A DNA stretch of 64,000 nucleotides from an uncultured Muribaculaceae bacterium. Lineage in GTDB: Bacteria > Bacillota_I > Bacilli_A > RF39 > UBA660. This document shows, in pieces, positions 21,592 through 64,000 of this stretch (position 1 is the first letter of the stretch; every line of letters starts with the position of its first letter). A program made the position numbers and the translations under genes. The stretch lies in the NCBI GenBank assembly GCA_964491535.1, contig CAZBGR010000002.1, forward strand, positions 3,440 to 67,439, in the 5' to 3' direction. A model generated the notes under the pieces. It made no database searches and was not told where the DNA came from. It saw nothing but the letters and a program-made list of their open reading frames with translations.

Positions 21592-21597
21592 AACCTC

Positions 21598-23634: not shown

Positions 23635-23989
23635 AATCAACCTCCACTTCGTTAATGCTATAAATAGTATATCAATTAACAGAAAAGCGAACAAGACTAA
23701 TCGTTTAAATTTGACATTAGAAGATGTAAAGCCAATCATCGTTTTTACAATTTAATATCCTTTTTGGCTTTGTTTTTTAATTAATTTTATAAATTATCTT
23801 CAAGATTATTCTTTTTAATTATATATATACCTATTTTATATCATAATTTTTAGTTGATTTTTAAATCGTTTTTCATCAAGATATTAAAATAATTTTATTA
23901 ATTATAATTTCAAACTAAAATTATTTTCGCAAAAATTATTTACGAAAACCATTTTTTAGACTATAATTGATAAAAGAAAGGATTACAAC

Positions 23990-26131
23990 ATGAAAAAAAC
24001 AATTCTCCTTTATCGACGATCCCCCTTTAAATTACGTTTGTTAACAATTTTATTATTACTTGTTTATCTTGGTAGCAGTCTTTATCTTTGTTTCAGTCTT
24101 CTTTTATTTAGTAATATTGAAACTATATTAAGAATTATAATTATTTTTATAATTAGCTCACTTACTATATTCCTTATTATAAAAAGCTATCGATTACTAT
24201 TTAAATTGAAAAATAAATTGAAAATAATGTTAATCTTTATTTTTTTGTTAATTATTATCCAATCTTTAAGTGCTTTTACCATTAATAAAGTTTATTCTAC
24301 TTTAGTCAATATAAATAAATCACAAATTACCTATACTACTAATTTAATAACTTTAATAGATAATGACATAAACAATATTAATGACGTGAAAAAGAAAAAA
24401 ATAGCTTTAATTAATGACGAAGATAACATTGAAGGTTTTATCATCAGTCAGGAATTAATTAAGCGTTATAAATTAAATAAAAACAATGATATCGTTTTAT
24501 ACGAAAGCTTTATTCAAATGCTAACAGATCTGTATAATCAATCAATTGATGCCGTTTTTATTTCTGGTAATTATATAACTATGTTTTCATCAATTGAATC
24601 TTTTGAAAATATTAAAGATGAAACTAAAATTATTATTAGTCAATCAAAAAAAGTAACCAAAGATAATAAAAAAAAGGCAATAAAAAAATTAACTGAACCA
24701 TTTACCTTTTTAATAATGGGAGTAGATTCTACTAAAGATGATATTAATAGCGGATCTGCTTTTAATGGTGATGCCTTAATGTTAATTACTTTTAATCCCA
24801 AAACATTAAATACTACTATTTTAAGTATCCCACGAGATACCTATGTCCCAATAATGTGTTTTAAAAATAATCTTAAAAATAAAATTACTCATGCTGCTTG
24901 GCACGGAGAAGATTGCATGATTAAAACCATCGAAAACTTTACTAGTATTAAAATTGATTATTATATAAAAATTAACTTTAAAGGCGTAGTCGATCTAGTT
25001 AATGCTTTAGGAGGAATAAAAATAGATGTCCCAATCACCTTTTGTGAACAAAATAGCAAACGCCAATGGGATGATCAAACAATTTATTTAAAAGCGGGCC
25101 AACAAACTATAAATGGTGAAGAAGCTTTAGCTTTAGCTAGACATCGTAAAGATTTAAAAATATGTGGAAAATATTATGTCAATAATAAAATGAACGATTT
25201 AAAACGAGGTTTAAATCAACAATTAGTTTTAAGTGCTATCTTAAACGAAACCAAAAAAATAAATAACATTAATAAAGTTTATACTTTGTTAGATATCATG
25301 GAAAAAACAATTGATACTAATTTAGAAACTAATCAAATTTTAAACTTTTATAATGTAAGTAAAGATCTTATTAAACATAATAAGAAAATAAAAAATAATG
25401 ATATTTTATTTTTAGAAAGATTATATTTAAACGGCTATGATCAATATATATATGATGCTAGTTTTAACAAATCATTATATAATTATGTTTACTATCAAGA
25501 TAGTTTAGAAGCGATTATTAAAGCCATGAAAATAAATTTAGAAATAGAAAATCCTATTTTAATTAAAAACTTCTCTTTTTCAATCAATGAACCTTATCAA
25601 CAATCTATAATTGGCCAAGATATTTACAGTAAAAAAACTATTCAAGTAATTCCTAATTTTACTGTTAAAACTAAACAAGAAGCAATTGATTGGGGAATAA
25701 ACAATAAAATTAAAATAACTTTTAAAAGTATCGATTCAACAGATGATGAGTATCAACAAAATCAAATAATTTATCAAAATATTCCAACCCATACTTTATT
25801 AAATCAGCTTAATAATAACGAAATTATCCTAACTATTATTAATAAAACAACTCCTAAAATAGAAAAAATTAATTGTAACGAACCTGAAAACGAATTAAAA
25901 GATGTTTGTTTAATGCCAAATTTTATAGATAATTCAATAAGCGAAGTTGATAAATGGTTAAATAACATATTCTTTAATTTTATTGTAACTAAAACAAAAG
26001 AAATCACTATTGATCCTTTAAAAAACGGAATCATATTTGAACAATCAATAAAGCCCCAAACCAAAGTATCAAATATCGGAGCAGAATTAATTATTAAATA
26101 TTATCTATTAGAAGAAATAGAAGAAGAATAA
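23990..26131 (+). CDS. LytR-CpsA-Psr (LCP) family cell-envelope phosphotransferase with a long C-terminal extension
   Basis: N-terminal TM; LCP core GDALMLITFNPKTLNTTILSIPRDTYV ... NFKGVVDLVNALGGIKIDVP ... INGEEALALARHRKD. AAAGGA RBS 8 nt upstream. 713 aa, of which ~300 C-terminal aa are unassigned. Confidence 0.75.
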   Translation: MKKTILLYRRSPFKLRLLTILLLLVYLGSSLYLCFSLLLFSNIETILRIIIIFIISSLTIFLIIKSYRLLFKLKNKLKIMLIFIFLLIIIQSLSAFTINKVYSTLVNINKSQITYTTNLITLIDNDINNINDVKKKKIALINDEDNIEGFIISQELIKRYKLNKNNDIVLYESFIQMLTDLYNQSIDAVFISGNYITMFSSIESFENIKDETKIIISQSKKVTKDNKKKAIKKLTEPFTFLIMGVDSTKDDINSGSAFNGDALMLITFNPKTLNTTILSIPRDTYVPIMCFKNNLKNKITHAAWHGEDCMIKTIENFTSIKIDYYIKINFKGVVDLVNALGGIKIDVPITFCEQNSKRQWDDQTIYLKAGQQTINGEEALALARHRKDLKICGKYYVNNKMNDLKRGLNQQLVLSAILNETKKINNINKVYTLLDIMEKTIDTNLETNQILNFYNVSKDLIKHNKKIKNNDILFLERLYLNGYDQYIYDASFNKSLYNYVYYQDSLEAIIKAMKINLEIENPILIKNFSFSINEPYQQSIIGQDIYSKKTIQVIPNFTVKTKQEAIDWGINNKIKITFKSIDSTDDEYQQNQIIYQNIPTHTLLNQLNNNEIILTIINKTTPKIEKINCNEPENELKDVCLMPNFIDNSISEVDKWLNNIFFNFIVTKTKEITIDPLKNGIIFEQSIKPQTKVSNIGAELIIKYYLLEEIEEE

Positions 26132-34331: not shown

Positions 34332-34781
34332 TTAAATCGTTTTTCTACTTCTCAATACTGACTCTAATCTCGTAGCCCTTAAAATTTGGTTTTCTAAGGA
34401 ACCATAGGAAATATCTACATCCAGTAAATAGCCACTAGTAAATATTACTAATGAATTTTTGTGATCGATTTTCTTGTACTTTTCAATGTTCTTTAACGAT
34501 ATCCAACAACAATCATATAATCTTGGTGAATTAGTAGGAAAAAAGATTATTTCCCTACTCTCTTCAACGATAATAGGTGCTTTATGGGAAACACCAATTA
34601 ATTTTTTTGTTCCGGAATGGCGGCCAAAATAAGAACTTCCGAAAAATTGGCAACTATTTTCAATAATATCCATTGGTTTCATATTAACAATAAAAGTACG
34701 ATCCTTTTCAACTACTTTAGAATGACCATTATCAATTGGTATAATGGCTAAAGTTTCGGCCGAAATTTCATAAGATGTCAT
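34332..34781 (-). CDS. comK: ComK-family competence transcription factor
   Basis: Strong by-eye match to B. subtilis ComK: SYEISAETLAIIP, FIVNMKPMDIIENSCQFFGSSYFGRHSGTKKL, ISYGSLENQILRATRL. 149 aa, shorter than Bsu ComK at the C-terminus. Confidence 0.8.
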   Translation of the reverse strand: MTSYEISAETLAIIPIDNGHSKVVEKDRTFIVNMKPMDIIENSCQFFGSSYFGRHSGTKKLIGVSHKAPIIVEESREIIFFPTNSPRLYDCCWISLKNIEKYKKIDHKNSLVIFTSGYLLDVDISYGSLENQILRATRLESVLRSRKTI

Positions 34782-42749: not shown

Positions 42750-42779
42750 TTGACTTTTTAATATTTATTGTGTTATTAT
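42750..42779 (+). promoter_or_regulatory. Strong sigma-A-like promoter (-35 TTGACT, 18-nt spacer, extended -10 TGtTATTAT)
   Basis: Plus strand reads TTGACTTTTTAATATTTATTGTGTTATTAT. Confidence 0.5.
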
Positions 42780-42783
42780 TTTC

Positions 42784-42851
42784 TTAGCTCTACTTCCTTT
42801 ATGGTAATTAGAGCGACAAACCGTTATGTTAAATCATGACGGTTTTTTATT
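42784..42851 (+). ncRNA. Candidate ~65-nt small RNA or rpmB leader-attenuator: two hairpins ending in an intrinsic terminator
   Basis: First hairpin GCTCTA...TAGAGC. Then CCGTTATG-ttaaat-CATGACGG (8-bp stem with one G-U) followed by TTTTTTATT, immediately downstream of the promoter above. Confidence 0.35.
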
Positions 42852-42974
42852 ACATTTTAATTATATCAAACTAATGTATGGCCGTCAAGGATAACCACCC
42901 CCCTAAAATTTGACTTTAATTATATAGTATGCTATCGTTATAAACGACTTAAATAAAAAAAAGGAGCTGATAAC

Positions 42975-43136
42975 GTGGCTAAAAAAGTCACTAATCGAAA
43001 ACCGTTATTTGGTAATAAACGTTCTCATGCAATGAATATTACGAAAAAGAAACAACGATTAAACATTCAAAAGGCAACTATAAAAGGGAAGAAAATTAAA
43101 ACAACTGTCCGTGAAGCTAAAAAAAAGTTTAGTTAA
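42975..43136 (+). CDS. rpmB: 50S ribosomal protein L28 (53 aa, GTG start)
   Basis: Own translation: MAKKVTNRKPLFGNKRSHAMNITKKKQRLNIQKATIKGKKIKTTVREAKKKFS, with AAGGAG RBS. Missing from the ORF track (<60 aa). Confidence 0.8.
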   Translation: MAKKVTNRKPLFGNKRSHAMNITKKKQRLNIQKATIKGKKIKTTVREAKKKFS

Positions 43137-43256
43137 TAATCATATTCATCACCTATTTACTAAACAAGCATTTCTTATTTAATTATTTAAATTTATATTA
43201 ATAAACATTTGAATAATCTATTTTAAATACATTAAAGAACACAACTTTAATGTTTT

Positions 43257-44383
43257 TTAATGTTTTAACCATTTATAATTTAAATATTGTTCTACTTGTT
43301 GTCGTTTTTGATCATTTAATACTGTATTATATAATAATATCTCAGCAATATCTCCTCTTAAATAATTAACTTTACCAGCCGCTGCCCCAATAGTATGACG
43401 AGTTCCAAAATCATCATTATAAGCATTAAGACCAAAGTTAACCGTTCCGGTAGTTGTTAATTTTTCTTGATTAATCCATATTTTAATTTCATTATCTTCC
43501 AAACTCTGAGTAGTACTTATAATATGATAATTATTCGTAGTATATGTATTAGCAGAAATTACATTTTGAAAATTCTCAGATTTTGATCTTCCTCCAGAGC
43601 GCAAAGTATTATTAGCTTGAAAATCAAGAAATATTTTAGAATTATTAGCTTCTATTGTGATATCAATATAAGAATTCCTCTCATTATGAGCTGTTTTATT
43701 ACCAACTAAAAATAAAGTTATTCCTTCTTTAGCCTTAAGAAGAATAGCGATATCATTTGGTAAAATTAAATAACTATTAGCAAAACGAACAATCGCTTGA
43801 TTATTAAGAATGTTGGTTTTATATATAGGCTTAAAACTATTATCAGATTGCGTAGCATGATTTTTTTTGGCGATAAATCATCCCATTGAGTTACCATATC
43901 TCCATTATCTAAATTAATAATATTTGCGGCATCTAAATGTAAAATCAAATTATTCTTAGGGAAAAGATAATAAGAAGATAAATTTTCGTCAGAATAAGAA
44001 AATTTAATATCATATCGATTATTACCCAACACATAAATATAAATTTTAGTGTCTAGAGGGATAGAAATATCATTTCTGGGATCAATTACTGGTTCAGTTA
44101 ACATTTCTTTAGAAATTAAATCTCCTAAAGTAATAGAAATTTCTTGACCAGGTTCATCAATATTGTCAATAATATCTCGATAATCATCAATATATAACCT
44201 AGTAGTAGTTTCAATGCTATTAATTAATAAATAATAGGCTTGCTCTTTTGCTTTATTGATATAATTCATCCCTAAAGAAATTACTATAGATGATAAAACA
44301 CCTAAAATAATAATAACGGCTAATAATTCAACAAGTGTAAAAGCATGATTATTAATTAACCTTTTTAATTTTATTTGTTTCAT
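43257..44383 (-). pseudogene. Type IV pilin-like (class III signal peptide) protein with C-terminal LamG-like domain, split by a +1/-1 frameshift at an A8 homopolymer
   Basis: N-terminal prepilin motif HAFTLVELLAVIIILGVL. The upstream ORF (43766..44383) and downstream ORF (43257..43604) join into one ~375-aa frame if the A8 run (T8 at plus 43861-43868) is A9; the joined frame was verified codon by codon. The C-terminus GDIAEILLYNTVLNDQKRQQVEQYLNYKW is Laminin_G_3-like. Confidence 0.6.
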
Positions 44384-44470
44384 AATACACTTCCTCTAAA
44401 TTATATAATTGTTATCAATTTAAAAAAACAAACTCATTATTTATCTTAAATTTTACTTTTTCTATAAAAA

Positions 44471-45481
44471 TTATACTAGGGCATGCCTTTTAAAAATATT
44501 AACGTTATCTAAAGCGTATACTCTAATTTTAGCTTGATTAATAATTTTAATCCATCCTAAACCACTAATAACCACATCTTCATTACCTTCAATATTGAAA
44601 TTTATTTCTTTTAATTTTCGTAATCGAATATCGTGATTTAAATTTACTTGTTCAATCTTAATGCCATTAGCTACATAAATTACTAAAATATTTTTGTTTC
44701 CTTCTAAATAATCAATTCTAACTAAATCATCAATTATTAACGATTGATTAGCTTGAACTTGATAAATTCTTGGTTGTATCTCATTAACTGGAATAATTGT
44801 TTTTAATTTCATGAAATCAACCACATTCTCAATACTACCTCCATCTAATAAACCAGGAGTATCAATCAAAGTTAAATCATCGTTTAATTTTATTTCCATC
44901 ATTTCAAAAGTGGTTGACGGTAACATACTAATTGTTATATCTGATTCTTGATGAGCATAATTTTTAGTTAAAGTATTAATTAAAGTTGATTTACCAGCAT
45001 TAGTGTTCCCCACCACATAAACATTATTAGATTTTTTATAGTAATTAATTAGCTCATATAATTTATCTAACTGATAATGTTCATGACTACTTATACATAT
45101 TAACTTTAGATAATTTAAATTATAGGGCTTTAACCAATTAATAATATCTATTTCCGTTAATGTTTTAGGTAATAGATCTCTTTTATTTAAGACAAGGATA
45201 AAAGGGTTTTTTAAAAAATCATCAACTTTTTCTATTTTTTGACCAATATTAAATAAATCAACTACATACACAACCAAATCGTTAGTATAATTAATATGAC
45301 TTAACATTTTTTGATAATCTTCACTATCTTTTTTAATAAAAACATAATCACCATAATTTTTAATACGAAAACAACGACGACATATTTTAGTCTTTCCATA
45401 AATACTAGCATTAATATAACCGGCCATTTCTGGTTTTTCTGATTGAAAAGTAGCTCCACAGCCCAAACATTTTTTAATCAT
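44471..45481 (-). CDS. yqeH: Ribosome biogenesis GTPase YqeH (circularly permuted GTPase with N-terminal zinc ribbon)
   Basis: CLGCGATFQ...CRRCF zinc ribbon; GNTNAGKST G1 motif after the G4 region. Confidence 0.85.
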   Translation of the reverse strand: MIKKCLGCGATFQSEKPEMAGYINASIYGKTKICRRCFRIKNYGDYVFIKKDSEDYQKMLSHINYTNDLVVYVVDLFNIGQKIEKVDDFLKNPFILVLNKRDLLPKTLTEIDIINWLKPYNLNYLKLICISSHEHYQLDKLYELINYYKKSNNVYVVGNTNAGKSTLINTLTKNYAHQESDITISMLPSTTFEMMEIKLNDDLTLIDTPGLLDGGSIENVVDFMKLKTIIPVNEIQPRIYQVQANQSLIIDDLVRIDYLEGNKNILVIYVANGIKIEQVNLNHDIRLRKLKEINFNIEGNEDVVISGLGWIKIINQAKIRVYALDNVNIFKRHALV

Positions 45482-46001
45482 AATATTGCCCCTTATAAAA
45501 CAATTGTTTCTTACTAGCCTTATTCATAATTATTTTCTCTATCCCTCTATTTATCTTAGTTATTAACTTATCTCTTAAACTAATAGGATTAACTAAAATA
45601 GTTGTAATACCTACTTTATTACCACCTAAAATATCAGTTAACAATTGATCGCCAACACTAGCTATTTCATTTTCTAATAATTTATATTCCTTCATAATTT
45701 TATGATATTTATAACTCAAAGGTTTCATAGCAAAAGCAGCACAATCTACTTCTAAATAATCTTTAAATACCTTTAACCTATCTTTTGTAGCATTAGATAA
45801 TAAAGCAATAATAAAACCCATTTCTTTTAATTTTTCAATTAAATCCTTTACTTTTTTAGGTGGCTTTTTAATATCAACTGGAACTAAAGTATTATCAACA
45901 TCAAATAAAATGCATTTAATTCCTGCTTTTTTCAATTTCTTATAATCTATAGTATAAATACTTTTTTGATAAATATTAGGAATACACTTTTCTAACATCA
46001 A
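45474..46001 (-). CDS. yqeG: HAD-superfamily (subfamily IIIA) phosphatase YqeG
   Basis: FDVDNTLVP motif; conserved position upstream of yqeH. Confidence 0.8.
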   Translation of the reverse strand: MMLEKCIPNIYQKSIYTIDYKKLKKAGIKCILFDVDNTLVPVDIKKPPKKVKDLIEKLKEMGFIIALLSNATKDRLKVFKDYLEVDCAAFAMKPLSYKYHKIMKEYKLLENEIASVGDQLLTDILGGNKVGITTILVNPISLRDKLITKINRGIEKIIMNKASKKQLFYKGQYYD

Positions 46002-46138
46002 ATAACTCCTCCCTAATTACATATCTTATATCATTTTAAACAAAAAAGGAAAGATAATCAAGTGTTTTACTATTTTAAGCTAAAGTCAACAAGCTTAAAT
46101 AACTCAAGATTAATAAAATGTTGATAAATTATTATCAT

Positions 46139-49100
46139 TTATTTTTCTAAAGATTGATAATAAGCAAATCTTTCTTTAGCCTCTTTTTTTAATTCCATTC
46201 TTAATTTAGCTGCTCTTTTTTGATTAATATTTTTTAAAATTGTAAACCGATTTTCACTATCAAGAAAGTGATCAAATAAATCAAAATTTGGATTATTATA
46301 ATCTAATTTGAAAATTTCTTCTGTTGGATTATATCTAAAAATAGGAAAATAACCACATGCAACCGCTTTTTTTTGGTGTTCAATACTTTCTTCCATCCCA
46401 TTTTTAATACCATGTAAAATACAAGTAGCATAAGCTATAATCAATGAGGGGCCCTTATGCTTTTCAGCTTCGATGAAAGCATCTAAAGTAGCCTTCATAT
46501 TAGCTCCTAAACTTACTTCAGCAATATAAGCATGCTTATAAGTCATCATCATTCGAGCTAAATCTTTTCTAATGGTATCTTTCCCACTAATTGAAAACTT
46601 AGATACAGAACCTTTTTCTGATGCCTTTGACAATTGGCCTCCTGTATTAGAATAAACTTGAGTATCTAAAACTAAAATATTAATATTATGATGGCTAGCT
46701 AAGACATGATCAATACCTCCAAAACCAATATCATAGGCCCAACCATCTCCCCCCACCGCCCAAACAGAACGAGTTTTAAGATATTCTTTTAAAGGTTCTA
46801 AGAAAGGAACTTTTTGATAATCTAAACGTTCATATACTTCTTTAGTTACCTCATAATCATCTTTATCATTTAACCATAATTCAAATAAATATCTACTTTC
46901 TTCATCAACGTTATCAATCATATCAATCATCATATTTTCAATTCTTTTTCTCATTTGTTGATAAGCTATTACCATTCCAAAACCATATTCTGCATTATCT
47001 TCAAATAAAGAATTAGCCCATGGTACTAAATAAGGCATACTAGGCATACTAGCTCCATAAATAGAAGAACAACCTGTTGCATTAGCAATTATTAAACGAT
47101 CATTAAATAATTGAGTTAATAGTTTAAGATACGGAGTTTCGCCACAACCGGCACAAGCCCCACTAAATTCAAATAAAGGTTTTTGAAATTGAGAGGCTTT
47201 AACATTATTTTTAATAACTTCTTTTTTAACAGTTACTTCATTTACTAAGTAATCAAACCCATTTTGATGATTAATTTCATCAAAAGGTTTCATCCTAAGA
47301 GCTTTATTACCATCTTTTCCAGGACATATTTTAGCACAAATTCCACAACCAGTACAATCTAAGGTAGATATTCCAATTTGAAAATAATAATTGTTCCCGA
47401 TTGCCTTTAAGGCCTTTTCTTTAACCTCTAAGGGAGCCTTTTGATATTCTTCTTCAGTCAACAAAAAAGGTCTAATTACAGCATGAGGACAAACAAAAGA
47501 ACAAAGATTACATTGAATACAATTTTCAGGATTCCACGCGGGAACATTTTCAGCAATTCCTCTTTTTTCATATTGAGAAGTTCCCTTAATAAATGTTCCA
47601 TCTTTATAATCTTTAAAAGCTGACACCTTTAAATCATTACCCTTTAAATCACTCATCAATTTAAAAATATCATTATTAAGATGCTTAGTTATCTTTTTTT
47701 TCTCTATAAAATCTAATACTTCTTCTTTTAAATGAATTTCTTTTAAATAATAAATAGTATTAGTAACTGCTTTTAAATTAGCCTCCACTATTTTATCTCC
47801 TTTATAAGCGAAATCTAATTTAACATTTTCTTTAATCTTAAATAAAGCATCCTCAAAGGGCATAAAATTAGTTAATTTAAACAAACAAGTTTCTATAATA
47901 GTACTTATTTTATTTTTTAAACCTGATTTATTAGCTAATTGATAAGCATCAATTACGTAAAATTTAATTCTTTTGTTAATTAATATACTTCTTAGCTCAT
48001 AAGGTAAGGATTTAATGATTTCTGTTTCATCTAAAGTACTAACATATAAAAAAATTCCATCATTTTTTAGGAGTGACAACATGTCATAACGACCTAAATA
48101 ACTTTCTTTAGCACATACCAAAATATTAGGATTTGATACTAAATAAGGAGCTCTAATATCATCAGAAGCGATTCGAAGATGCCCTCTAGTTATCCCCCCA
48201 CTTTTTTTAGAATCATATTGAAAATAAGCTTGAACCTTATTATTCGTATTATCACCAATAATCCTAATAATGTTTTTAGCACAACTAATCATTCCATCAG
48301 AACCATAACCATAAATCAATAATGAAAATCGGTCCTTTAAATTAATAGTAAATGGAATTATTGGAATACTTAAATGAGTAACGTCATCATCAATCCCAAC
48401 TGTAAAACCATGAAAATAATGATCACTATCTAAAAAGCTATAAATTGATTTAATATGAGCGGGAGTAATATCTTTGCCAGATAACCCGTAACGACCCCCA
48501 ATAATAATTGGTTTACGATTTGTTTTATTAAACAAACTTACTACATCTAAATATAATGGTTCTCCACTACTGCCAGCTTCTTTAGTTCGATCTAAAACAG
48601 CTATTCTTTCTACTGTTTTAGGTAATACTTTAAAAAAATATTTAGCACTAAAGGGGCGATATAAATGAACCTCTATTAATCCTATTTCCCCGTTTAGATA
48701 ATCAATAGTTTCTTTAATAGTTTCACAAATTGAACCCATCGCAATAATAATCCTTTTAGCTTCTTTATTACCGTAATAATTAAAAGGCTGATAATCTCGA
48801 CCTGTTTTTTGATGAATCTTTTCCATGTAATCATTAACTATTTCAACTACCAATTCATAATCCTTATTACGAGCTTCAGTTGCTTGAAAATAAATATCTT
48901 CATTATGAGTTGTACCCCTAATTACTTGATTAGAAGGGGATAAACTACGATTTCTAAAGTTAGCTATAGCTTTAAAATCAACTAAATCAATAATATCTTC
49001 TTTAGTTAATAATTTTATTTTTTGAATTTCATGACTAGTTCTAAAACCATCAAAAAAATGAAGAAAAGGAATCCTACTTTTAATAGCAGATAAATGACTA

Positions 49101-53792: not shown

Positions 53793-55865
53793 TTAATCAT
53801 CATCACTAAAAAAGTCGTCAAAGAAAGCATCATCTGAAATACCTTTATCTACCTTATCATTAATAATTTTATCAAGATCAGCATTTATTTTAATTACTTC
53901 TTCTTTTGGTTTCTGATCAACTTTATTCACTGGAGGTTTCTCTTCTTTCTTTTCAACCACTGGTTTTTTAGGCTTTTCTACTATCCCTTTTTCTTCAGCT
54001 TCTAATTCAGCTATTTTAGTATCTATTTTTTTAATTAATTCATCAACGTTAAAAGATGAAGGAACATCTTTCTTTCCAAATAAAGAATTAGAAGATGGTA
54101 AAGGTGGGGTTGGTACAAAAGGTCTATCTTCACCTAACATATTAAACAAACTATTTTTTTTCTTTTCTTTAACGAAAGCTCTAATATCAAAAAGAGCGAT
54201 TGGTTTAGTAATTCGTTCTGGATAGTTAGGTTTAGCGCCCTTTTTATCACCATAACTATATTCAAACATTGGTAATAATTTAACTTTAAAAGGCCAACAA
54301 CGATCCTTTAATATAATAGCATCTTTAAATTTCAATCGTTGTAAATCACTAACCGTAATTAAAGGCCTAATTTGTTCTTTACCATCTTTACTCTTATCTT
54401 TTTCTTTAACTTCACCAGCTAGTTTACTTAACTCTTCTAAGGCTGATAATTCCTTAGTAATTAAATAAATAACATTCGCACAATTACCTTTTATTGTTTC
54501 TGCATTTTCCTTGCCATAAACTTGAGTTAATTGAGCATAATTTTGAATAATTAAATTAAAACGAATTAAACGAGATCGAGCAGCCGTAATCATTGTTGTT
54601 ACATCCCTTAAGGGTGGCATATTAGCAAATTCATCTAAAATAAAATTAGTTCTAATTGGTAATTTACCCCCATGAGCATGAGCAACATCAATTAAAATTT
54701 CATAACATTGTTTAACAAAAACAGTCGCTAAAGCATGATAAGTTTTCTTTTCATCTTGAATAATAATAAAAACAGCTGTCTTTTGCTTCCCAATATCACT
54801 CACTTCAAAATCACTATAAGATAACATTTCTGATAAGTGTTCTGTTAAAGCAAAAATCTTAATTTTTTGCCTAAACACTGATAAAATACTATCCCTTGTT
54901 TGATCAGGAGCATTAATCGCACTAGCAGCATTAATATAAACTGGTTTAGATGGATCTTTGTCCATAAAGTATTGCTTAATATAAGAAGCACTACCATACC
55001 TTTCTTCCCCAACAGATGTCATATAACTAATTGAATTTAAATTGATTTCATCTTCTTTAGCATCAGCAAATAACCCTAAAGCACAGGCCACAAAATAATC
55101 AGCTGAGGTGCTTTCCCAAAAGGGATCATCTTTACTTTTTTCATCATGGATTAAATTAAAGGCTAAATCATTTAACAATTCATTAGCTTTATCTGAACCT
55201 TGTTTATATAATTTATAAGGTAATATTAACGGATTCCATGCATTACCTTTTTCAGGATTACGAAGATTAATCAACACAATATTATAACCCTTTTCTAATA
55301 GCATACTCGCTGTTTCTTCGTATAACTCACCTTTAGGATCAGTTAAAATCATCGATTCACCTTTTTTAGCTAAAATCTTAATCAATGGTTTAACAACTAT
55401 TTCGGTTTTACCACTACCGGTAGACCCAATAATTAAGGAATGTGACTCGCCGTCATCTACCCATACTTCATTAGGTTCAGTAATTAAAGGTACCCCTGCA
55501 TATTCAAAAACGGGATCTAAAGGTCTTACTTTTTTCAAAACCTTTTTCATCTCTTCCTTTTTAGCCCATCTTGAATACCCACCCTTTTCTTTCTTACCTC
55601 TACTAATACCAATACCTTCTTCACGATCAAAAAAATATGAAGAAACAGCAGTTAAAATAGCTATAAAAGCAAAAAGATAAAAAACAATAGTAGCTGATAA
55701 AAACTCAGGAGTAAAAGCAGGTAATGGATTAAAACCATGGAATTCTTGAACCCGAGTTAAAGAAGCAGCATTTAAAACGCCTATTGATACTAAATAAAGT
55801 AAAAAAAAGGCAAAGACAAAAAAATACATGATATCTTTAGCTTCAGCTTTAAATTTAAGCTTCAT
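53793..55865 (-). CDS. Type IV secretion coupling protein (VirD4/TraG/TcpA family)
   Basis: Two N-terminal TM helices, Walker A GSTGSGKTE, TraG/TraD family core, and an acidic C-terminal tail DDAFFDDFFSDDD. GAGGTGA RBS. Confidence 0.85.
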   Translation of the reverse strand: MKLKFKAEAKDIMYFFVFAFFLLYLVSIGVLNAASLTRVQEFHGFNPLPAFTPEFLSATIVFYLFAFIAILTAVSSYFFDREEGIGISRGKKEKGGYSRWAKKEEMKKVLKKVRPLDPVFEYAGVPLITEPNEVWVDDGESHSLIIGSTGSGKTEIVVKPLIKILAKKGESMILTDPKGELYEETASMLLEKGYNIVLINLRNPEKGNAWNPLILPYKLYKQGSDKANELLNDLAFNLIHDEKSKDDPFWESTSADYFVACALGLFADAKEDEINLNSISYMTSVGEERYGSASYIKQYFMDKDPSKPVYINAASAINAPDQTRDSILSVFRQKIKIFALTEHLSEMLSYSDFEVSDIGKQKTAVFIIIQDEKKTYHALATVFVKQCYEILIDVAHAHGGKLPIRTNFILDEFANMPPLRDVTTMITAARSRLIRFNLIIQNYAQLTQVYGKENAETIKGNCANVIYLITKELSALEELSKLAGEVKEKDKSKDGKEQIRPLITVSDLQRLKFKDAIILKDRCWPFKVKLLPMFEYSYGDKKGAKPNYPERITKPIALFDIRAFVKEKKKNSLFNMLGEDRPFVPTPPLPSSNSLFGKKDVPSSFNVDELIKKIDTKIAELEAEEKGIVEKPKKPVVEKKEEKPPVNKVDQKPKEEVIKINADLDKIINDKVDKGISDDAFFDDFFSDDD

Positions 55866-55968
55866 TAATAATCACCTCAATATAAATAACATCTAATTAA
55901 ATTATAGCATAAAAAAGCATGATTTAGTAAAAAGCCACTTTAATAATCAGTTCAATCCATTCAATATT

Positions 55969-56661
55969 TTATATTTGATTATTTTGCTGCTCTTTATTTT
56001 TAATAAATATTACAAATATTACTATACCTATCCCAAGTATAATAATTAAAATAACTGAATAACTAATTTTGATTTCTTCATTAATGTTTATAAAATTGTT
56101 TTGCTTTGTTTTATCAAATGATATTATAATTTCCTTTTCTTCTGTATTTTTATTAGTGTTCCATATATAATCATTATTCTTTACTTCATCAGCATTATGT
56201 TCAACCACTTTGAAAATAGAATTAATTGTAATTTTAGCATTATTTATGGCTGGACGCTCTGGATCATCTTCATTGTATAAATAAAAATTTGAAGCTTTCA
56301 AAGTTATTATCTTACCATGTTCATCATAATTAATTTTTTCAAATAAATACTTTGCAGCATCCGTATTATCTTTATAATCTTGAATTGATAAAAACGTTCT
56401 TGATATTAATACTCCCCCCATTTCATTGTTATCTATCATTTCATATACATATAAACTTTTATCCGTTTCTTCAAAATAAGGTTCAAAAATAAAACCTATT
56501 ACCTCACTTTTATCGCTAAATTTATACATATTAAAGAAAGCATTTGTTTCCGTAGCTTTAATTTGTTCTTCAACCACTAAATCCTTGTTAATAATCAAAT
56601 TATATTCCACTGAACAGCCAGTAAAAATAATCAAAACTAAAAATAAAATAATTTTCCGCAT
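55969..56661 (-). CDS. Lipoprotein with C-terminal TM anchor (T4SS-associated, possibly VirB8/TcpC-like)
   Basis: Start re-set to the internal ATG (AAGGAGGT RBS) giving MRKIILFLVLIIFTGC lipobox; the upstream ORF-track extension overlaps the preceding gene. Coordinate accuracy is within a few nt. Confidence 0.55.
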   Translation of the reverse strand: MRKIILFLVLIIFTGCSVEYNLIINKDLVVEEQIKATETNAFFNMYKFSDKSEVIGFIFEPYFEETDKSLYVYEMIDNNEMGGVLISRTFLSIQDYKDNTDAAKYLFEKINYDEHGKIITLKASNFYLYNEDDPERPAINNAKITINSIFKVVEHNADEVKNNDYIWNTNKNTEEKEIIISFDKTKQNNFININEEIKISYSVILIIILGIGIVIFVIFIKNKEQQNNQI

Positions 56662-56692
56662 AAAAACCTCCTTATTTTTATTTTTTTGAAAA

Positions 56693-58330
56693 TTATTTAG
56701 AAATAATCCAAAAAGGTGTATTGTTAGTAGCTTTAGTCTGTCTAACAATAAGTTCAAAATCCCACTCCTTACATCTCTTTTCCACTTTAGGATCGGCAAC
56801 TAAAACTTGGCCTGAAGATGTTACCCCTCTTAATACAATATAATGCCCACCCTTAGTAAAATCTCCCGGCCCCATATGGGCAACAACTAAACTACCTTGA
56901 GATAATGCATTAATAATTCTCTGCAAATCTGAATTAGTTCTACTTACAGCTATTGATTTTAATCCATAATATTCAGGAGCAGCTATCATCATACTTCCAT
57001 AAGAGCCATTAGAAGTACAATAAGCAGGGCAAAATTTATCTACTATATTTATAGGTGTAACTTCCTTTCCAAGTAATGATGATATTACTATCGCTAATGA
57101 AGTTGGCCCACACCCCCATCTACTAATATTTCCTCTTCCAGAAGGATAAATATAAGGATAATTTGCCCATCTTGGATCATCTTGATTAAAATACATTACA
57201 TCTATAACTCCATCTGTAAAAATTACATTTATATAATATTGGCCACCACTATAACCATCACTTTTATTCATTAAATAAGCAAAAGCATCTCTTTGATCAA
57301 ATATTTCATCAATTTGGCGATTAAAAACAATCTCTTGTTCTTCTTTGCTTTTAGTAATTATATGTTCATTATAAGATTGGCGTGGTAAATAATTATCCCT
57401 TAAATAGTCTTTATAACGATTATAATTCATAAACTTAACCATTACAGGAAAAGCTATTTCTCCTTCTGAACAATTACTAACAAGGTATGATTGGGTCATT
57501 ATTCTGTAAATGTTTTCTAACAAATCTTCATCATATATTGTAGATAACTGTTTTGTAAAATAACTTTGACCTTCTTGGTTATATGCATATATTAATCTAA
57601 TTAAGTGTAATACATTGTTATATTTTATAACATCTTTAATGGTATCTTCAACTGTATAACCTAAATGGAGGGCAAAATCATTAAACAAATCCTTAGCCGC
57701 TTTACTTAATTCACTATATTCACCAGGTTGATCTGAAAAGAAACCAAAAAAGTCTTTAAATTTACCAAACGCTCCCTGCGAAAAACCTACGCACCTAGAT
57801 TCAAACCTAGTATCAACAAGATGACCTAATAATCCTTGCTGAGAACGTATTAAAGTATAGGCACTACCCAGTTCATCTACAGCTACTACATAAAAGTTTC
57901 TAATTTGCGATGTTTCTACAACATAATCATTATCATCAAATGTATATTCTTCTTCACTAACATTTTCATCATCATATCCCTCAGGATTAATATAATTAAA
58001 ATAATGAACCGTAGCAGATAATAGGGGGATATCCAATTCCCCCATGTCATGAGAAAAATCCCTATATCTTACATATTCTTCATCTAATTTTAGAAAGAAA
58101 ACCTCTTCTGATTTCTTAAAACCTTCACCTATAGTAAAATTAATAAATTTATCTAAACCCGTTCCTACCGCCTCAATTATATCTGATAAATACATAAACG
58201 GTACCATTATTAAAATTATAATTAATATCACTAAGGCAACTTTAGCAGCAATTACCGCTATAGCTGAAATGATAGGCCATGATTTAACTATTGTATGTAT
58301 CATCTTAGCTTTTTCAATAATTTTATTCAC
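56693..58330 (-). CDS. Membrane-anchored cell-wall hydrolase with C-terminal peptidase_C39-like (papain-fold) domain, analogue of TraG/CwlT/TcpG
   Basis: N-terminal TM; C-terminal WGCGPTSLAIVISSL...GGHYIVLRG Cys/His pattern. GTG start with AAAGGAGTGA RBS. Confidence 0.6.
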   Translation of the reverse strand: MNKIIEKAKMIHTIVKSWPIISAIAVIAAKVALVILIIILIMVPFMYLSDIIEAVGTGLDKFINFTIGEGFKKSEEVFFLKLDEEYVRYRDFSHDMGELDIPLLSATVHYFNYINPEGYDDENVSEEEYTFDDNDYVVETSQIRNFYVVAVDELGSAYTLIRSQQGLLGHLVDTRFESRCVGFSQGAFGKFKDFFGFFSDQPGEYSELSKAAKDLFNDFALHLGYTVEDTIKDVIKYNNVLHLIRLIYAYNQEGQSYFTKQLSTIYDEDLLENIYRIMTQSYLVSNCSEGEIAFPVMVKFMNYNRYKDYLRDNYLPRQSYNEHIITKSKEEQEIVFNRQIDEIFDQRDAFAYLMNKSDGYSGGQYYINVIFTDGVIDVMYFNQDDPRWANYPYIYPSGRGNISRWGCGPTSLAIVISSLLGKEVTPINIVDKFCPAYCTSNGSYGSMMIAAPEYYGLKSIAVSRTNSDLQRIINALSQGSLVVAHMGPGDFTKGGHYIVLRGVTSSGQVLVADPKVEKRCKEWDFELIVRQTKATNNTPFWIISK

Positions 58331-58353
58331 GGTATCACTCCTTTACATAGATG

Positions 58354-60138
58354 TTATAAGCCGCCACCACTACCAAATGATTCTAATTCTTCTTCTGTTA
58401 CCACTACATTTATTCTCATTCGCCTACTACCGCAAACAAACAAAGCCTCCCCTTGTCCATAACGCTTAATACTTTCCTTTTCATTATCATTTAAATCAAT
58501 TAACATCGACAAATCTTCAACTGCTTGTTTTTTTAAACCCATTACCATATAATAAGAAGCATTATCAAAGATAGCTTTACCTTGAGTAATAACATGCGGA
58601 TCAATAAAGTCACTAGGTTGTTGAGTAATAATAATTGTCCCCGTGTTATATTTCCTTGCCCTTCTTTGAACTTGAGCTAAAAATTCAGCCCCTAAAGTAT
58701 TATTGCTACCTAATAATACGTGAGCCTCATCAACTGATAAAACAGTATTAACTGATTTATCTAAACATAAACCCCAGGCATATTTTAAAATATTAAAAAA
58801 TAAAGCATTTCTAATATTAGTATCAGCATTCATTATTTCCCTTATATTAAAAACAATAAATTCTTTGTTCCCACTAATTGTCGTATGACCATCAAAATAA
58901 TACTTAAGTTCCTTAGTTAGAGGCCTTATTTTTAATTCTAAACGTTCCATAATATCTCGTTCATGTGTTTTTTCTTGATACTGCGCTAAACGACCTCTAA
59001 TGGTAGCATAAACATCTTTAAAAGTAGGGTAATCGGTTGTTTTAAAATTACTAAAATCAGTGTTAAAATCAATCCCAAAACGTTTATATGTATCTTGCAC
59101 TACTTCACTAAACAATGTTAAAACATCTTCTTCAATACCAGGATCGTAATACTTCATAAAAGCTTTTAAAAATTGAAGTGTTTTAGTTAAAATAGTATAA
59201 CCTAAACCTTGTTCTAATTCATCTTCATCAGCATCAATAATTATTTCTAAGGGATTAATCATTCCAAATTCGCCACCCTTACCTAAATCAATAAAATTAC
59301 CTCCATACATCCTAGTCATTTCATCAATTTCACCCTCGGGATCAATAACTACTATTTGATACCCATTACGAATATGACTTCTTAACATTAATTTAGCTAC
59401 TGTTGATTTTCCACTACCAGAAGCCCCTAAAATAACTAAATTAGCATTATGACGATTGTGTTCCTTTTTTATTTGAAATAAAAATTGATTAAAAAGAATA
59501 ACACCACCAGAAAAGTCAACCCCTAATAAAGTTGCTAAACCAGCATCCTTAATGCTATCAAAAATAAAAGGATACATAGCAGCCATTGAAATAGAAGGAA
59601 TCGCTGTTCCAATTCTATTTTCAACATCTTGTTTTGGAAAAATAGGTAACATTGATTTTAAAACCTTTTCTTGTTCAAAACGCAAAGGTATTGCCCTTAA
59701 ATCCATAGCAATTAAATAATTTTTGACATTTACTTTTTTTAATTCTAATTCTTCTCTAGTATCAGCTGTAATCATAATATGCATTTGAAAATCAAAAATC
59801 CTGGCTTGAGAAGAAGCTAACATTGAAATAAAATATTCTAATGATTCAACATCTAATCTAATTCGTTCTTGCATTGTTTTATCACGTTCTTCTTGATATT
59901 TAGCTTTTAAATCTACTATTTGCTTATTTATCATTTTTGATAAGTTACCAAAAGGAATAGGAATATGTTTAATAACAACCTTTATTCCCGACATAGTTGT
60001 TAAATTAGATAAAAAACCAACCGATACTGTTTTCGGATAAGAAATAACTGTTAATAAGGTCGAATACTTATCACTAATAACAAAATCATTGGCAAAAAAC
60101 TGCATTCCCTTAGGAGCAATTTGTGTTTTTATATTCAT
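58354..60138 (-). CDS. Type IV secretion ATPase VirB4 (TraE/TcpF/PrgJ-like)
   Basis: Walker A LGASGSGKST, Walker B LSVDEAHVLL, AAA_10/DUF87-like architecture; overlaps the upstream gene by 4 nt. Confidence 0.85.
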   Translation of the reverse strand: MNIKTQIAPKGMQFFANDFVISDKYSTLLTVISYPKTVSVGFLSNLTTMSGIKVVIKHIPIPFGNLSKMINKQIVDLKAKYQEERDKTMQERIRLDVESLEYFISMLASSQARIFDFQMHIMITADTREELELKKVNVKNYLIAMDLRAIPLRFEQEKVLKSMLPIFPKQDVENRIGTAIPSISMAAMYPFIFDSIKDAGLATLLGVDFSGGVILFNQFLFQIKKEHNRHNANLVILGASGSGKSTVAKLMLRSHIRNGYQIVVIDPEGEIDEMTRMYGGNFIDLGKGGEFGMINPLEIIIDADEDELEQGLGYTILTKTLQFLKAFMKYYDPGIEEDVLTLFSEVVQDTYKRFGIDFNTDFSNFKTTDYPTFKDVYATIRGRLAQYQEKTHERDIMERLELKIRPLTKELKYYFDGHTTISGNKEFIVFNIREIMNADTNIRNALFFNILKYAWGLCLDKSVNTVLSVDEAHVLLGSNNTLGAEFLAQVQRRARKYNTGTIIITQQPSDFIDPHVITQGKAIFDNASYYMVMGLKKQAVEDLSMLIDLNDNEKESIKRYGQGEALFVCGSRRMRINVVVTEEELESFGSGGGL

Positions 60139-60689
60139 AAAGGCATCACCGTCCCAAACTCTACCGACATTCCCCCACCCAAGAAATTATCAAGAATAAT
60201 TCTTAAATCCTCATTACTTGTTTGAGTAGCATTTAAACCACAGCCTGCCATCCCATTAATCAAGGATCTAATCTTTTTTTGAATAATTTCAGGGTCCTTA
60301 TCCTTAAACAAAATATAATATTCAGTATCAACCACATTATTAGCCATAAACATATTAGCTTTATTAATATCCTCAGTTATCAATTTTCTAAGTTGTGTCC
60401 CTTGAACGTTATTATATAAGAGTTGTAATTGAGATAAATAAAGATTAATATCAACCGGACGATCGGCTACTATTACCCAAAATTCATAATCAATCATATT
60501 GTAAAAATTACGAAGACCTCCAATAACATTCATTTGCGAATCCTCATCTAAAATAAATATATTTCGAGGACTAACTTTGATTCCAGTTACTTTAGTGTTA
60601 TCATCTAAAATTATCATCCCATTAGTTATATTTTTAACTGGTACCCAATCCTCAGTATATTTACTTTTTGGCCTCTTCTTGGTATTCAT
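60135..60689 (-). CDS. T4SS-associated hypothetical protein (184 aa)
   Basis: Translationally coupled to virB4 (ATGA overlap); no recognisable motif. Confidence 0.4.
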   Translation of the reverse strand: MNTKKRPKSKYTEDWVPVKNITNGMIILDDNTKVTGIKVSPRNIFILDEDSQMNVIGGLRNFYNMIDYEFWVIVADRPVDINLYLSQLQLLYNNVQGTQLRKLITEDINKANMFMANNVVDTEYYILFKDKDPEIIQKKIRSLINGMAGCGLNATQTSNEDLRIILDNFLGGGMSVEFGTVMPL

Positions 60690-60987
60690 TAATACACCAT
60701 CCTTTCCATATATAAAGTCTTCTTTCTGTTAAAAACTTTAAACCAGATTTAATAACTGTTAATACATTATGATAATTAGGAATCGGCAAAACTAAAAACC
60801 CAGCCAATAACCCCGGTCCTAAAATAATAACCGTTTTCAACAAATTATCAGTTGACAATGTAAATAACAATATTAAAGTTATAGAAACCCCTACCGCCAA
60901 TAATATTAAGTCATTAATCATAAAAACATTAAAAATTAAAGCCCCTCTTTTAGTATTAGCTGGTATCAAATAAGTATTTTTATTCAT
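60661..60987 (-). CDS. Small two-TM protein, TcpE/VirB3-like
   Basis: 108 aa with two hydrophobic helices; position immediately upstream of VirB4. Confidence 0.4.
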   Translation of the reverse strand: MNKNTYLIPANTKRGALIFNVFMINDLILLAVGVSITLILLFTLSTDNLLKTVIILGPGLLAGFLVLPIPNYHNVLTVIKSGLKFLTERRLYIWKGWCINEYQEEAKK

Positions 60988-60993
60988 TCACTA

Positions 60994-61485
60994 TCACCTT
61001 TCCTTTTTATTATTAATGATTTCCAATAACATTTGGTTTTCTTCATATTGTTTTATCAAATTATATTTTTCACAATCATCTGGACAAATATTTTTTACTT
61101 TTTCAAATTCCTTTTCTATACAATCTAAAGCCTCTTTAACTTTTTCATATTCATTTTTAACCCTTAAATAATAATCCTTTAACGAAATTACTATACCCTT
61201 TTGATGATCAATTATAAAGTTTTTGTTTTCATCAAGAAGAACCTCATTATTAGTATTTATAGTTACCATTGCGTTAGGATGGTTAGCAAACCATATGTTA
61301 ACAATTTTAAATTGATTTTCTATACTCTCAAAATAAATTTTAATTAATTCTGCCCTTTCATAAACTTTACTAAAAAGATTAGAAAAAACAGCATATTTAC
61401 TTCCCCTTTTATTTATTTCTATTAATAACTTTTTAAGTCTTTTTTGTTGATGTTTTAATAAATGTTGATATTGACTTGGATTCAT
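60994..61485 (-). CDS. T4SS-associated hypothetical cytoplasmic protein (163 aa)
   Basis: No recognisable motif; sits in the conjugation cluster. Confidence 0.35.
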   Translation of the reverse strand: MNPSQYQHLLKHQQKRLKKLLIEINKRGSKYAVFSNLFSKVYERAELIKIYFESIENQFKIVNIWFANHPNAMVTINTNNEVLLDENKNFIIDHQKGIVISLKDYYLRVKNEYEKVKEALDCIEKEFEKVKNICPDDCEKYNLIKQYEENQMLLEIINNKKER

Positions 61486-61588
61486 GCTTTATTTCCTTTC
61501 ATTAATTGAATGTATCTAAATTTTAATGAAATATATAAATAATTTAAAAGTTTTGAATTCCATCATTTAGTCAAATTTACTGTTATAC

Positions 61589-63405: not shown

Positions 63406-64000
63406 TTAATTAAATATACAAAGCATAGGATTAGCCTTTTCGACTATTCCTGCTAAATATGCCAAATAAAACATAAGTTTTATTAAAGATGGTAATAAAA
63501 ACAAAATAACAGCAGCTAATAATCTTTTCATAAAATTAGATTGAGATTTTTTCATCGCTTCATCATCAGAAGCAAAAGTTGCTTTAGCCAAATCTAACGA
63601 ACCTAATAAAATAACTAATATCGGAACAATTAGCATTATCATCCTATATATATCTTTTAAAATGTTCCCTTCTTCATCTTCAAAATCCTGACATTGAACA
63701 GCAATAGAATCTTTTCTTTTTTTTTGATATGGTGATGTTGTTGTTTCATCTGAAATTTCCACTTCGGAAGGGTCAGTATATTTATCAACTTCTTCATCTT
63801 TAAGTTTTAAAACAGAAGGTGAAACTATATAAAGTACACCTGCACGCCCACTAGGTGAAGATGGTTTAGTAGCATAAACATATATTCTAGGAGGGCAAAA
63901 CAAAGCCGGTTCTTCATTAGCATTATAAAAATTTGATGGCTGGAAATTTGAAATGTCATATTTTATATCTGCACTATTACTTTTAGGTTCTTTTAACGAT
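63406..64000 (-). CDS. Membrane protein with two C-terminal TM helices, T4SS-associated; N-terminus lies beyond the window end
   Basis: The frame stays open to position 64000 (own translation ...SLKEPKSNSADIKYDISNFQPSNFYNANEEPALFCPPRIY...). The ORF-track M at 63903 is an internal TTG. Confidence 0.5.
   Translation of the reverse strand, partial: SLKEPKSNSADIKYDISNFQPSNFYNANEEPALFCPPRIYVYATKPSSPSGRAGVLYIVSPSVLKLKDEEVDKYTDPSEVEISDETTTSPYQKKRKDSIAVQCQDFEDEEGNILKDIYRMIMLIVPILVILLGSLDLAKATFASDDEAMKKSQSNFMKRLLAAVILFLLPSLIKLMFYLAYLAGIVEKANPMLCIFN

Follow-up and report, generated by a model that had tools for sequence, protein, structure and literature searches.

The stretch of DNA analysed here (the window: 64,000 nucleotides of contig CAZBGR010000002.1, from an uncultured bacterium) has a GC content of 27.6% and carries, on its minus strand between yqeH and rpmB, a pilin-like gene that is split into two open reading frames (ORFs) at a run of eight adenines. 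The upstream ORF (43766-44383, minus strand) encodes 205 amino acids, starts with MKQIKLKRLINNHAFTLVELLAVIIILGVL and reads NNHA/FTLVELLAVIIILGVL, and the downstream ORF (43257-43604, minus strand) encodes 115 amino acids in another frame. The A8 run on the minus strand corresponds to T8 on the plus strand at 43861-43868. An earlier, sequence-only reading of this DNA had taken the two ORFs for one gene split at this homopolymer and joined by one additional A, and both points are confirmed in the sequence: insertion of a single A in the run yields one continuous ORF of 375 amino acids. The features of the locus are listed below.

43257..44383, minus strand: whole modular pilin gene, 375 codons if the tract is A9, now broken by a -1 nt frameshift
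44390..44397, minus strand: Shine-Dalgarno-like AGAGGAAG, 6 nt upstream of the ATG (read from the sequence)
44342..44383, minus strand: predicted class III (prepilin) leader peptide MKQIKLKRLINNHA (N_methyl, TIGR02532, pilin alignment)
43991..44341, minus strand: predicted pilin module, residues 15-131, alpha-1 helix 17-67 followed by a beta-sheet (AlphaFold2 pLDDT 80-92)
43952..43990, minus strand: predicted linker, residues 132-144 (pLDDT <50 at 132-138; blastn homology to sister-species contig L008 ends at ~44006)
43861..43868, minus strand: A8 run and frameshift site, inside CC[A AAA AAA] ATC; A9 in sister haplotypes
43766..43861, minus strand: out-of-frame tail IMLRNLIIVLSLYIKPTFLIIKRLFVLLIVI in the zero frame, plus TAA stop
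43257..43862, minus strand: rest of the LamG/ConA-like module in the -1 frame, residues 175-375 plus stop, untranslated from the zero frame
43848..43850, minus strand: codon Q179 (CAA), TAA in the A9 haplotypes L006 and L007
43229..43263, minus strand: hairpin overlapping and 3' of the stop codon (dG -9.5 kcal/mol, z = -2.3), probably a terminator common to the pilin gene and the convergent rpmB
44471..45481, minus strand: yqeH-type GTPase, upstream synteny anchor
42975..43136, plus strand: rpmB (ribosomal protein L28), convergent downstream synteny anchor

A modular pilin gene interrupted at an A8 run

In the zero frame the run is read as tcg CC[A AAA AAA] ATC, and translation past it yields approximately 30-31 hydrophobic nonsense codons before a TAA at 43766-43768. 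The alternative frame opens just 9 nt before the run and continues without a stop for 200 codons, as far as 43257, with the overlap of the two frames limited to 43766-43877. Since wrong frames across the window contain 0.158 stops per codon (one per 6.3 codons) and remain open for 77 codons at most, an open stretch of 200 codons is coding sequence and not a product of chance. A -1 ribosomal slip on the A_AAA_AAA heptamer would give a protein identical to that obtained by the +1 A repair, and a tract of A6 would also restore the frame, at the cost of one residue. Third-position GC content (GC3) is 0.12-0.13 in both halves of the gene and, like third-position base use, resembles that of the neighbouring genes, indicating that the gene is native; on the same grounds, its acquisition by horizontal transfer was considered and rejected.

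The repaired junction restores a conserved QWDDLS-xxx-NHATQ motif with exactly the spacing of its homologues, which run uninterrupted across this position (WDDLSGNDNHATQ, WDDLSGENNHATQ and WDDISGSGNHLTQ, versus WDDLSPKKNHATQ in the repaired protein). The corresponding segments are QWDDLSGNDNHATQS in P0001, QWDDLSGENNHATQS in P0002, QWDDISGSGNHLTQS in P0098 (366 amino acids, likewise with a pilin + LamG-like architecture) and IWPDFSGNSNDAIQ in P0104 (342 amino acids, with N_methyl and Laminin_G_3 matches), compared with QWDDLSPKKNHATQS, identically spaced, in the repaired window protein. That homologues read through the junction with the same spacing identifies A9 as the in-frame, ancestral state.

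These homologues are distant. A word-indexed protein search with the repaired protein returned matches of no more than 34% identity, and the nearest full-length proteins combining N_methyl and LamG are just 30-32% identical to it. Scans of genome and metagenome contigs likewise gave distant matches alone, mostly to a C-terminal GDIAE...YL..KW motif in unrelated organisms, and exact look-up of the 205-aa, 115-aa, YqeH and L28 proteins found one other contig alone, identical to the window. An exhaustive search of 1.84 billion representative sequences yielded P0011, P0032, P0098, P0104 and P0126.

The profile check proposed by the sequence-only reading, which had pointed to a type IV prepilin-like signal and a LamG/concanavalin-like C-terminus, bears out both features, as the repaired protein scores above the Pfam cut-offs for N_methyl (residues 11-34, 24.5 bits versus 21.2) and for Laminin_G_3 (residues 240-359, equal to 43308-43667, 28.4 bits versus 27.6). 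TIGR02532 is matched as well (25.2 versus a cut-off of 16.3). Type IV pilins are defined here by Pfam PF07963 and TIGR02532, and the modular class by N_methyl together with PF13385. The class III signal is divided into leader and mature protein as MKQIKLKRLINNHA/FTLVELLAVIIILGVLSSIVISLG, with Ala rather than Gly at position -1 and E19 at mature position +5. In sequence comparison with the Protein Data Bank (PDB), type IV pilins matched the alpha-1 region only; the mature F1 of solved pilins aligns with residue 15, which places the predicted cleavage between A14 and F15 with E at +5.

An AlphaFold2 model built from a 10-sequence alignment (A2) reached a mean pLDDT of 76 and replaced an earlier, poor model from a shallow alignment (A1, pLDDT 62.6). 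It predicts a helix at residues 17-67, strands at 81-85, 113-120 and 123-128, a low-confidence linker at 132-138 and, past the linker, a beta-sandwich at residues ~145-373. Foldseek comparison with the PDB retrieved ConA-like lectin domains, among them those of the trypanosomal trans-sialidase, clostridial neurotoxin Hc, CBM40 and a phage tailspike, as well as the minor pilin PilC of Streptococcus sanguinis (7oa8, E = 4.7e-8; 7oa7, E = 7.2e-7), in agreement with the concanavalin-like C-terminus read earlier. As judged from profiles and predicted fold, the repaired protein is a modular type IV pilin composed of a class III signal, a pilin module, a linker and a ConA-like lectin module; its assembly into filaments and the binding of glycans by the LamG module are functions that we infer by analogy. 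A single reading frame joining carrier and cargo was not found, either in the window (A8 frameshift) or in its A9 sister haplotypes (TAA). The pilin-LamG gene is thus a disrupted member of the modular pilin family.

Sister haplotypes and the length of the tract

One protein from the exhaustive search, P0011, is 178 amino acids long, 97% identical to the window protein and ends in ...SPKKNHAT. It is encoded on two short contigs, L006 (from the Logan assembly of SRR8925753) and L007 (JGI 3300014206, from a municipal landfill leachate metagenome sequenced on Illumina HiSeq; PMC9723747), both of which are 97-98% identical to window positions 43752-44784. The two differ from each other by three synonymous changes in the pilin gene and by more in yqeH, and therefore represent distinct haplotypes. 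Both naturally contain the A9 tract that had been proposed as the in-frame state, but in both ACA TAA replaces the ACG CAA of the window, creating a nonsense codon (Q179*) four codons past the tract. The window and L001 carry A8. Tract length is thus polymorphic among close strains, as phase variation requires, and no intact allele of the pilin-LamG gene was found among the 1.84 billion representatives or the ~15 billion proteins; every fragment cluster was a singleton, with no further alleles of the LamG half among cluster members.

The differences between the window and L006 are unevenly distributed. None is present in 577 nt covering the 3' end of yqeH, the spacer and pilin codons 1-58, and the next 456 nt hold 20 (Fisher P = 6e-8), marking the variable part of the gene as a mosaic allele, probably of recombinant origin. 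L007 has in addition a 109-nt patch in yqeH (44663-44771) that is 10% divergent. Together these patterns suggest frequent recombination around the pilin gene. Mosaic alleles are common in pilins and other surface proteins.

The A8 run could be a sequencing or assembly artefact, the true genome carrying A9 and an intact gene. Homopolymers are classic sites of error and the source is apparently a metagenome-derived contig. A Logan contig of SRR8925752 matches window positions 42760-49057 at 100% identity (6,298 nt), A8 included, and the same fragments are present on the NCBI contig of 69.8 kb, although two assemblies that agree in this way may share reads. No other homopolymer in the 64-kb window joins two long ORFs upon a 1-base indel, despite 66 sense A7-A9 runs in other genes (two further matches in this test were ordinary gene overlaps), which makes a systematic homopolymer error unlikely. 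Moreover, the assemblies from related samples, one of them sequenced on Illumina HiSeq, resolved A9 cleanly, and the method is therefore able to tell A8 from A9. An artefact is accordingly regarded as very unlikely.

With respect to its length, A8 is ordinary in this genome, whereas an in-frame A9 lies beyond a steep drop in run counts. With the pilin gene set aside, 18 sense A8 runs occur in the coding sequence of the window; dnaE has two of them, and rpoA, rpsC and the pyruvate:ferredoxin oxidoreductase (PFOR) gene are also represented. The number of sense A runs in genes falls approximately 0.42-fold with each added A up to A8; runs of at least nine then number one, at 63717-63725, versus 13.6 expected (Poisson P = 1.8e-5), and none of 14 Lys-Lys-Lys tripeptides is encoded AAA-AAA-AAA. 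The genome strongly avoids A9 and longer runs in coding sequence, evidence of selection against slippage-prone tracts. This avoidance fits the threshold of ~9 nt set by the RNA:DNA hybrid for transcriptional slippage and the exponential increase of insertions in longer runs (PMC5574713, PMC5009743), and the in-frame A9 allele was of this disfavoured, unstable kind.

These counts also bear on programmed recoding, by which full-length protein would be made from the A8 allele through -1 ribosomal frameshifting or insertion of an A by RNA polymerase, setting a low stoichiometry for a minor tip pilin. The sequence CC[A AAA AAA] ATC does hold a canonical X_XXY_YYZ heptamer in the zero frame, and the conserved PKKNHATQ product would result exactly from either a -1 shift or one extra A in the mRNA. 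In A/T runs single-nucleotide transcriptional insertions predominate, and their frequency grows exponentially as the run lengthens (PMC5574713), so that some adventitious low-level rescue is physically likely. On the other hand, A_AAA_AAA is reported to be much less shift-prone than A_AAA_AAG in E. coli (PMC5009743), the 141 nt around the site fold no better than shuffled sequence (z = +0.88; 167 of 200 shuffles fold at least as well), and the 20 nt preceding the run show no GGAGG-like element. Relatives do not share the frameshift, the sister haplotypes being in frame at A9 and distant homologues uninterrupted. Six other A8 runs occupy the same codon phase in ordinary genes, and the tolerance of all 18 other coding A8 runs, essential genes included, implies low slippage at this length. 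Low-level rescue by polymerase or ribosome slippage thus probably occurs adventitiously, nothing marks the site as programmed, and programmed recoding appears highly improbable.

Probable cargo loss on a conserved carrier pilin

The gene order yqeG-yqeH-pilin-rpmB is conserved at this locus in the window and in L008, a contig of a sister species (SRR8925724; ~80% nucleotide identity, YqeH 73% identical at the protein level), and L010, from a more distant species (YqeH 62% identical), is syntenic. The pilin of L008 (P0032) has 132 amino acids and ends at the module boundary, without LamG, and window positions 43127-44005 have no counterpart on that contig. In L010 the pilin reaches 997 amino acids: after a pilin module 50% identical to that of the window come Ig-like (PF16403), F5/8-type-C and glycine-rich (PF12810) modules. 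The pilin module of the window is 72% identical to P0032 and 50% identical to P0126. The locus of P0009 (L012), a pilin cluster in a different context, was left out of the synteny argument.

By the Nei-Gojobori method, omega of the pilin module between the window and L008 is 0.19, compared with 0.20 for yqeH, and over pilin codons 1-174 between the window and L006 it is 0.15. The pilin module is under purifying selection of an intensity like that acting on the neighbouring GTPase gene. As for the cargo, 32 downstream codons of the LamG region are covered in the sister haplotypes, with three nonsynonymous and two synonymous changes.

Pilins in other surroundings were also encountered. In L012 (319-2167) the modular pilin P0009 adjoins a second small N_methyl pilin, and in L009 (317-574, minus strand, and 760-1860) P0098 likewise has such a neighbour, a pilin-like match on the opposite strand; both belong to pilin clusters, unlike the stand-alone pilin between yqeH and rpmB.

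Under phase variation, slipped-strand mispairing between A8 and A9 would toggle the lectin OFF and ON at high frequency, and the window would represent the OFF state. Several observations speak for such an adhesin switch: A8 and A9 both occur among haplotypes that are 97-98% identical, A9 is otherwise near-absent from coding sequence in the genome, the product is a surface protein of adhesin type, and its allele is the mosaic described above. There are also precedents in M. hominis vaa (PMC524362) and Neisseria pilC (PMC5953494). However, both A9 haplotypes are nonsense at codon 179, so that the presumed ON length is not ON, and no intact allele emerged from the search described above. The sister species deleted the LamG module or never had it, and A8 is the background length of the genome. 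Orthologous or analogous pilin genes moreover lack runs of at least nine (L008 has one A8, at the 5' end, and L010 one A7), and the pilin genes of L009 and L012 lack runs of at least seven. Phase variation is considered unlikely.

The reading that we favour, with a confidence slightly better than even, is that A8 is a real, segregating, truncating allele of a dispensable, fast-evolving cargo module, one among several independent losses. Behind the class III signal, the pilin module of ~115 residues would anchor the protein in a type IV filament, with the C-terminal ConA-like/LamG lectin module displayed as an adhesin after a short flexible linker, possibly at the filament tip by analogy with S. 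sanguinis PilC. In the strain of the window, one A would have been lost from an A9 tract, presumably by replication slippage; the position falls ~30 residues after the start of the lectin module, in the loop belonging to the conserved WDDLS-xxx-NHATQ motif. The predicted 205-aa product would then consist of the complete pilin module, a LamG stub and ~30-31 out-of-frame hydrophobic residues, and the lectin module would remain unmade except upon rare transcriptional or ribosomal slippage at A_AAA_AAA restoring the frame. The lineage would thereby lose its cargo and keep its carrier, by frameshift in the window, by nonsense mutation in L006 and L007 and by absence of the module in L008, the more distant species of L010 bearing a different cargo at the same yqeH-rpmB locus.

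Three routes to a pilin without LamG, together with a constrained carrier, place cargo loss first among the explanations and phase variation second. The two are not fully exclusive, given that a null allele derived by slippage can revert; the A8 allele is reversible in principle, and there is no evidence of a maintained switch. Such losses would be expected of a lectin cargo that these populations can dispense with or select against, and we infer relaxed selection on it. The sequence-only reading had left the choice between a phase switch and a recent pseudogene, and had named split orthologues as an argument for the latter. The orthologue comparison that it proposed came close to this situation, with sister haplotypes also broken (TAA) and a sister species without LamG, and so favours the recent pseudogene, restricted to the cargo module; the switch fares less well because the A9 alleles are null.

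Several points weigh against cargo loss. The tract differs between close haplotypes (A8 versus A9), as in true contingency loci, and an in-frame A9 belongs to a tract class otherwise purged from coding sequence (1 versus 13.6 expected), so that it could be a selected slippage-prone site. Poly-A of 7-9 is a proven phase switch in Mycoplasma hominis vaa, operating at 1e-3 to 1e-4 (PMC524362). The 200 downstream codons hold no further lesion, and the frameshift is therefore recent or the frame still under some selection. With just 32 LamG codons covered, relaxed selection on the cargo is not demonstrated, and the NCBI and Logan contigs may derive from shared reads.

Taken alone, the frameshift is an ordinary lesion: a homopolymer in the gene for a surface protein of an uncultured bacterium has changed by one base. 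The comparison of four loci makes a modest but concrete addition to the picture of modular pilins: one orthologous carrier at one conserved site bears, depending on the lineage, a LamG lectin, an Ig-like/discoidin/Gly-rich array or nothing, and a single species shows two independent inactivations of the lectin. The locus thus illustrates in nature the 'evolutionary tinkering' that has been proposed for modular pilins, and shows that cargo can be lost as well as gained. The most useful by-product of the analysis is the evidence that cargo turns over at a fixed locus while the carrier pilin is conserved, and the A8/A9 cliff in coding sequence is a clean signal of selection against slippage-prone tracts.

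A bolder version of the switch appears quite doubtful, namely that the tract is a genuine contingency switch acting on a type IV filament with a lectin at its tip, in an uncultured landfill Bacillota of very high AT content. If it were true, the 'carrier pilin' locus between yqeH and rpmB would be a hotspot of adhesin diversification in which cargo is repeatedly swapped, switched off or discarded, possibly fed by natural transformation (comK is nearby), with the TAA alleles as a second, later layer of inactivation. Should an intact A9 allele cycle with A8, this would provide a tractable case, beyond Mollicutes and Neisseria, of a type IV pilus adhesin that is phase-varied through a poly-A tract.

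The wider window and related systems

The earlier reading had linked the pilin to competence or a type IV pilus because comK lies ~9 kb away. The gene itself is a clear ComK homologue (34332-34781, minus strand; Pfam E = 1e-46), but the proposed role rests on this proximity: Pfam scans of 30 ORFs of the 64-kb window found no com/pil machinery genes (prepilin peptidase, assembly ATPase or platform protein), no second prepilin motif is present in the window, and the strict ComK box AAAAN5TTTT-N8-31-AAAAN5TTTT has no match there, a consensus that is possibly too strict. The absence of strict K-box matches leaves the competence link unsupported. Nor does the window contain another copy of the LamG module that could serve as a silent or donor cassette.

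The gene content of the window, which includes ComK, YqeH/YqeG, an LtaS-like sulfatase-domain protein, a LytR-CpsA-Psr (LCP) + PASTA protein, VanY, PFOR and dockerin/cohesin proteins, points to a wall-bearing, anaerobic, very AT-rich Bacillota. Two large secreted-type proteins adjoin the S10 ribosomal operon (20302-23739, minus strand), one with Dockerin_1, SH3_3 and Cadherin-like domains and the other with a Cadherin-like domain that passes the Pfam cut-off and a Cohesin match that narrowly misses it; such cellulosome-type parts are unexpected in so AT-rich a genome. The LytR-CpsA-Psr protein (23990-26131, plus strand) has 713 amino acids and a C-terminal PASTA match (whole-protein E = 3e-9), and its gene is the sole sizeable one on the plus strand besides rpmB, the remaining window being transcribed from the minus strand. 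A conjugation or integrative conjugative element (ICE)-like block (53793-63388, minus strand), with GC3 slightly above that of housekeeping genes, comprises a VirD4/TraG-type coupling protein (53793-55865), a Peptidase_C39_2 protein (56693-58330), a VirB4/TraG P-loop ATPase (58354-60138) and several ORFs without a Pfam match. The ribosomal protein L3 ORF (18826-19707, minus strand) has 293 amino acids, of which the Pfam match covers residues 99-180 alone, and the excess may reflect an over-extended start or an unusual extension. No Rfam family reached its gathering score in the 64 kb, though the window spans the S10-spc-alpha ribosomal protein operons.

Among known systems, dnaX-type -1 frameshifting and the rescue of frames by transcriptional slippage on poly-A in AT-rich endosymbionts (PMC5009743, PMC5574713) share with the window gene an A-rich X_XXY_YYZ heptamer and an A run, at which a -1 shift or an A added to the mRNA would restore the frame. 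Unlike in these cases, no stimulatory element was found and the frameshift is not conserved in relatives; the A8 run of the window is also one base shorter than the 9-nt class of efficient slippage.

Vaa of M. hominis (Zhang & Wise 1997, as summarised in PMC524362) resembles the window protein as a surface adhesin of an AT-rich genome with a short poly-A tract (7-9) inside its ORF, where gain or loss of one A shifts the frame; it is ON at A8 and OFF at A7 or A9. The gene also has exchangeable C-terminal cassettes. Switching has been measured for vaa (1e-3 to 1e-4) and its ON length gives an intact protein, whereas the ON-length alleles of the window's relatives carry a stop. Neisseria pilC1/pilC2 (Jonsson et al. 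1991, as cited in PMC5953494) offers a type IV pilus-associated adhesin switched by a homopolymer frameshift. Neisseria PilC/PilY1 is, however, a large non-pilin protein, and its poly-G/C tract of 9-20 is far above genomic background, with variation conserved across pathogenic strains.

The closest counterparts are other modular pilins. Those combining N_methyl (IPR012902) with PF13385 Laminin_G_3 (Raynaud et al. 2021, PMC8179133) have the same domain architecture, of which P0104, with both Pfam matches, and P0098 are intact examples in the present searches. In contrast to them, the window copy is disrupted, and its carrier is orthologous to pilins with other cargo or none at this chromosomal site. 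The experimentally characterised example is S. sanguinis PilC, a modular minor type IV pilin with a ConA-like lectin module (PDB 7oa7/7oa8; PMC9934059). Like PilC, the window protein would consist of a class III signal followed by a short pilin module, to which a linker joins a ConA-like/LamG-type beta-sandwich; the two are related at the level of predicted fold (7oa8, Foldseek E = 4.7e-8, TM ~0.41), with a sequence identity of just ~13-14%. By analogy, the role expected of the window protein would be that of a tip-displayed, glycan-binding adhesin. PilC differs in having an extra Ig-like module and in lying in a pil operon with its machinery, whereas the window gene stands alone between yqeH and rpmB, and PilC is intact with glycan binding shown, the lectin module of the window being out of frame. 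The lectin-bearing modular pilin architecture is thus already known, and the window gene is a disrupted new example of it.

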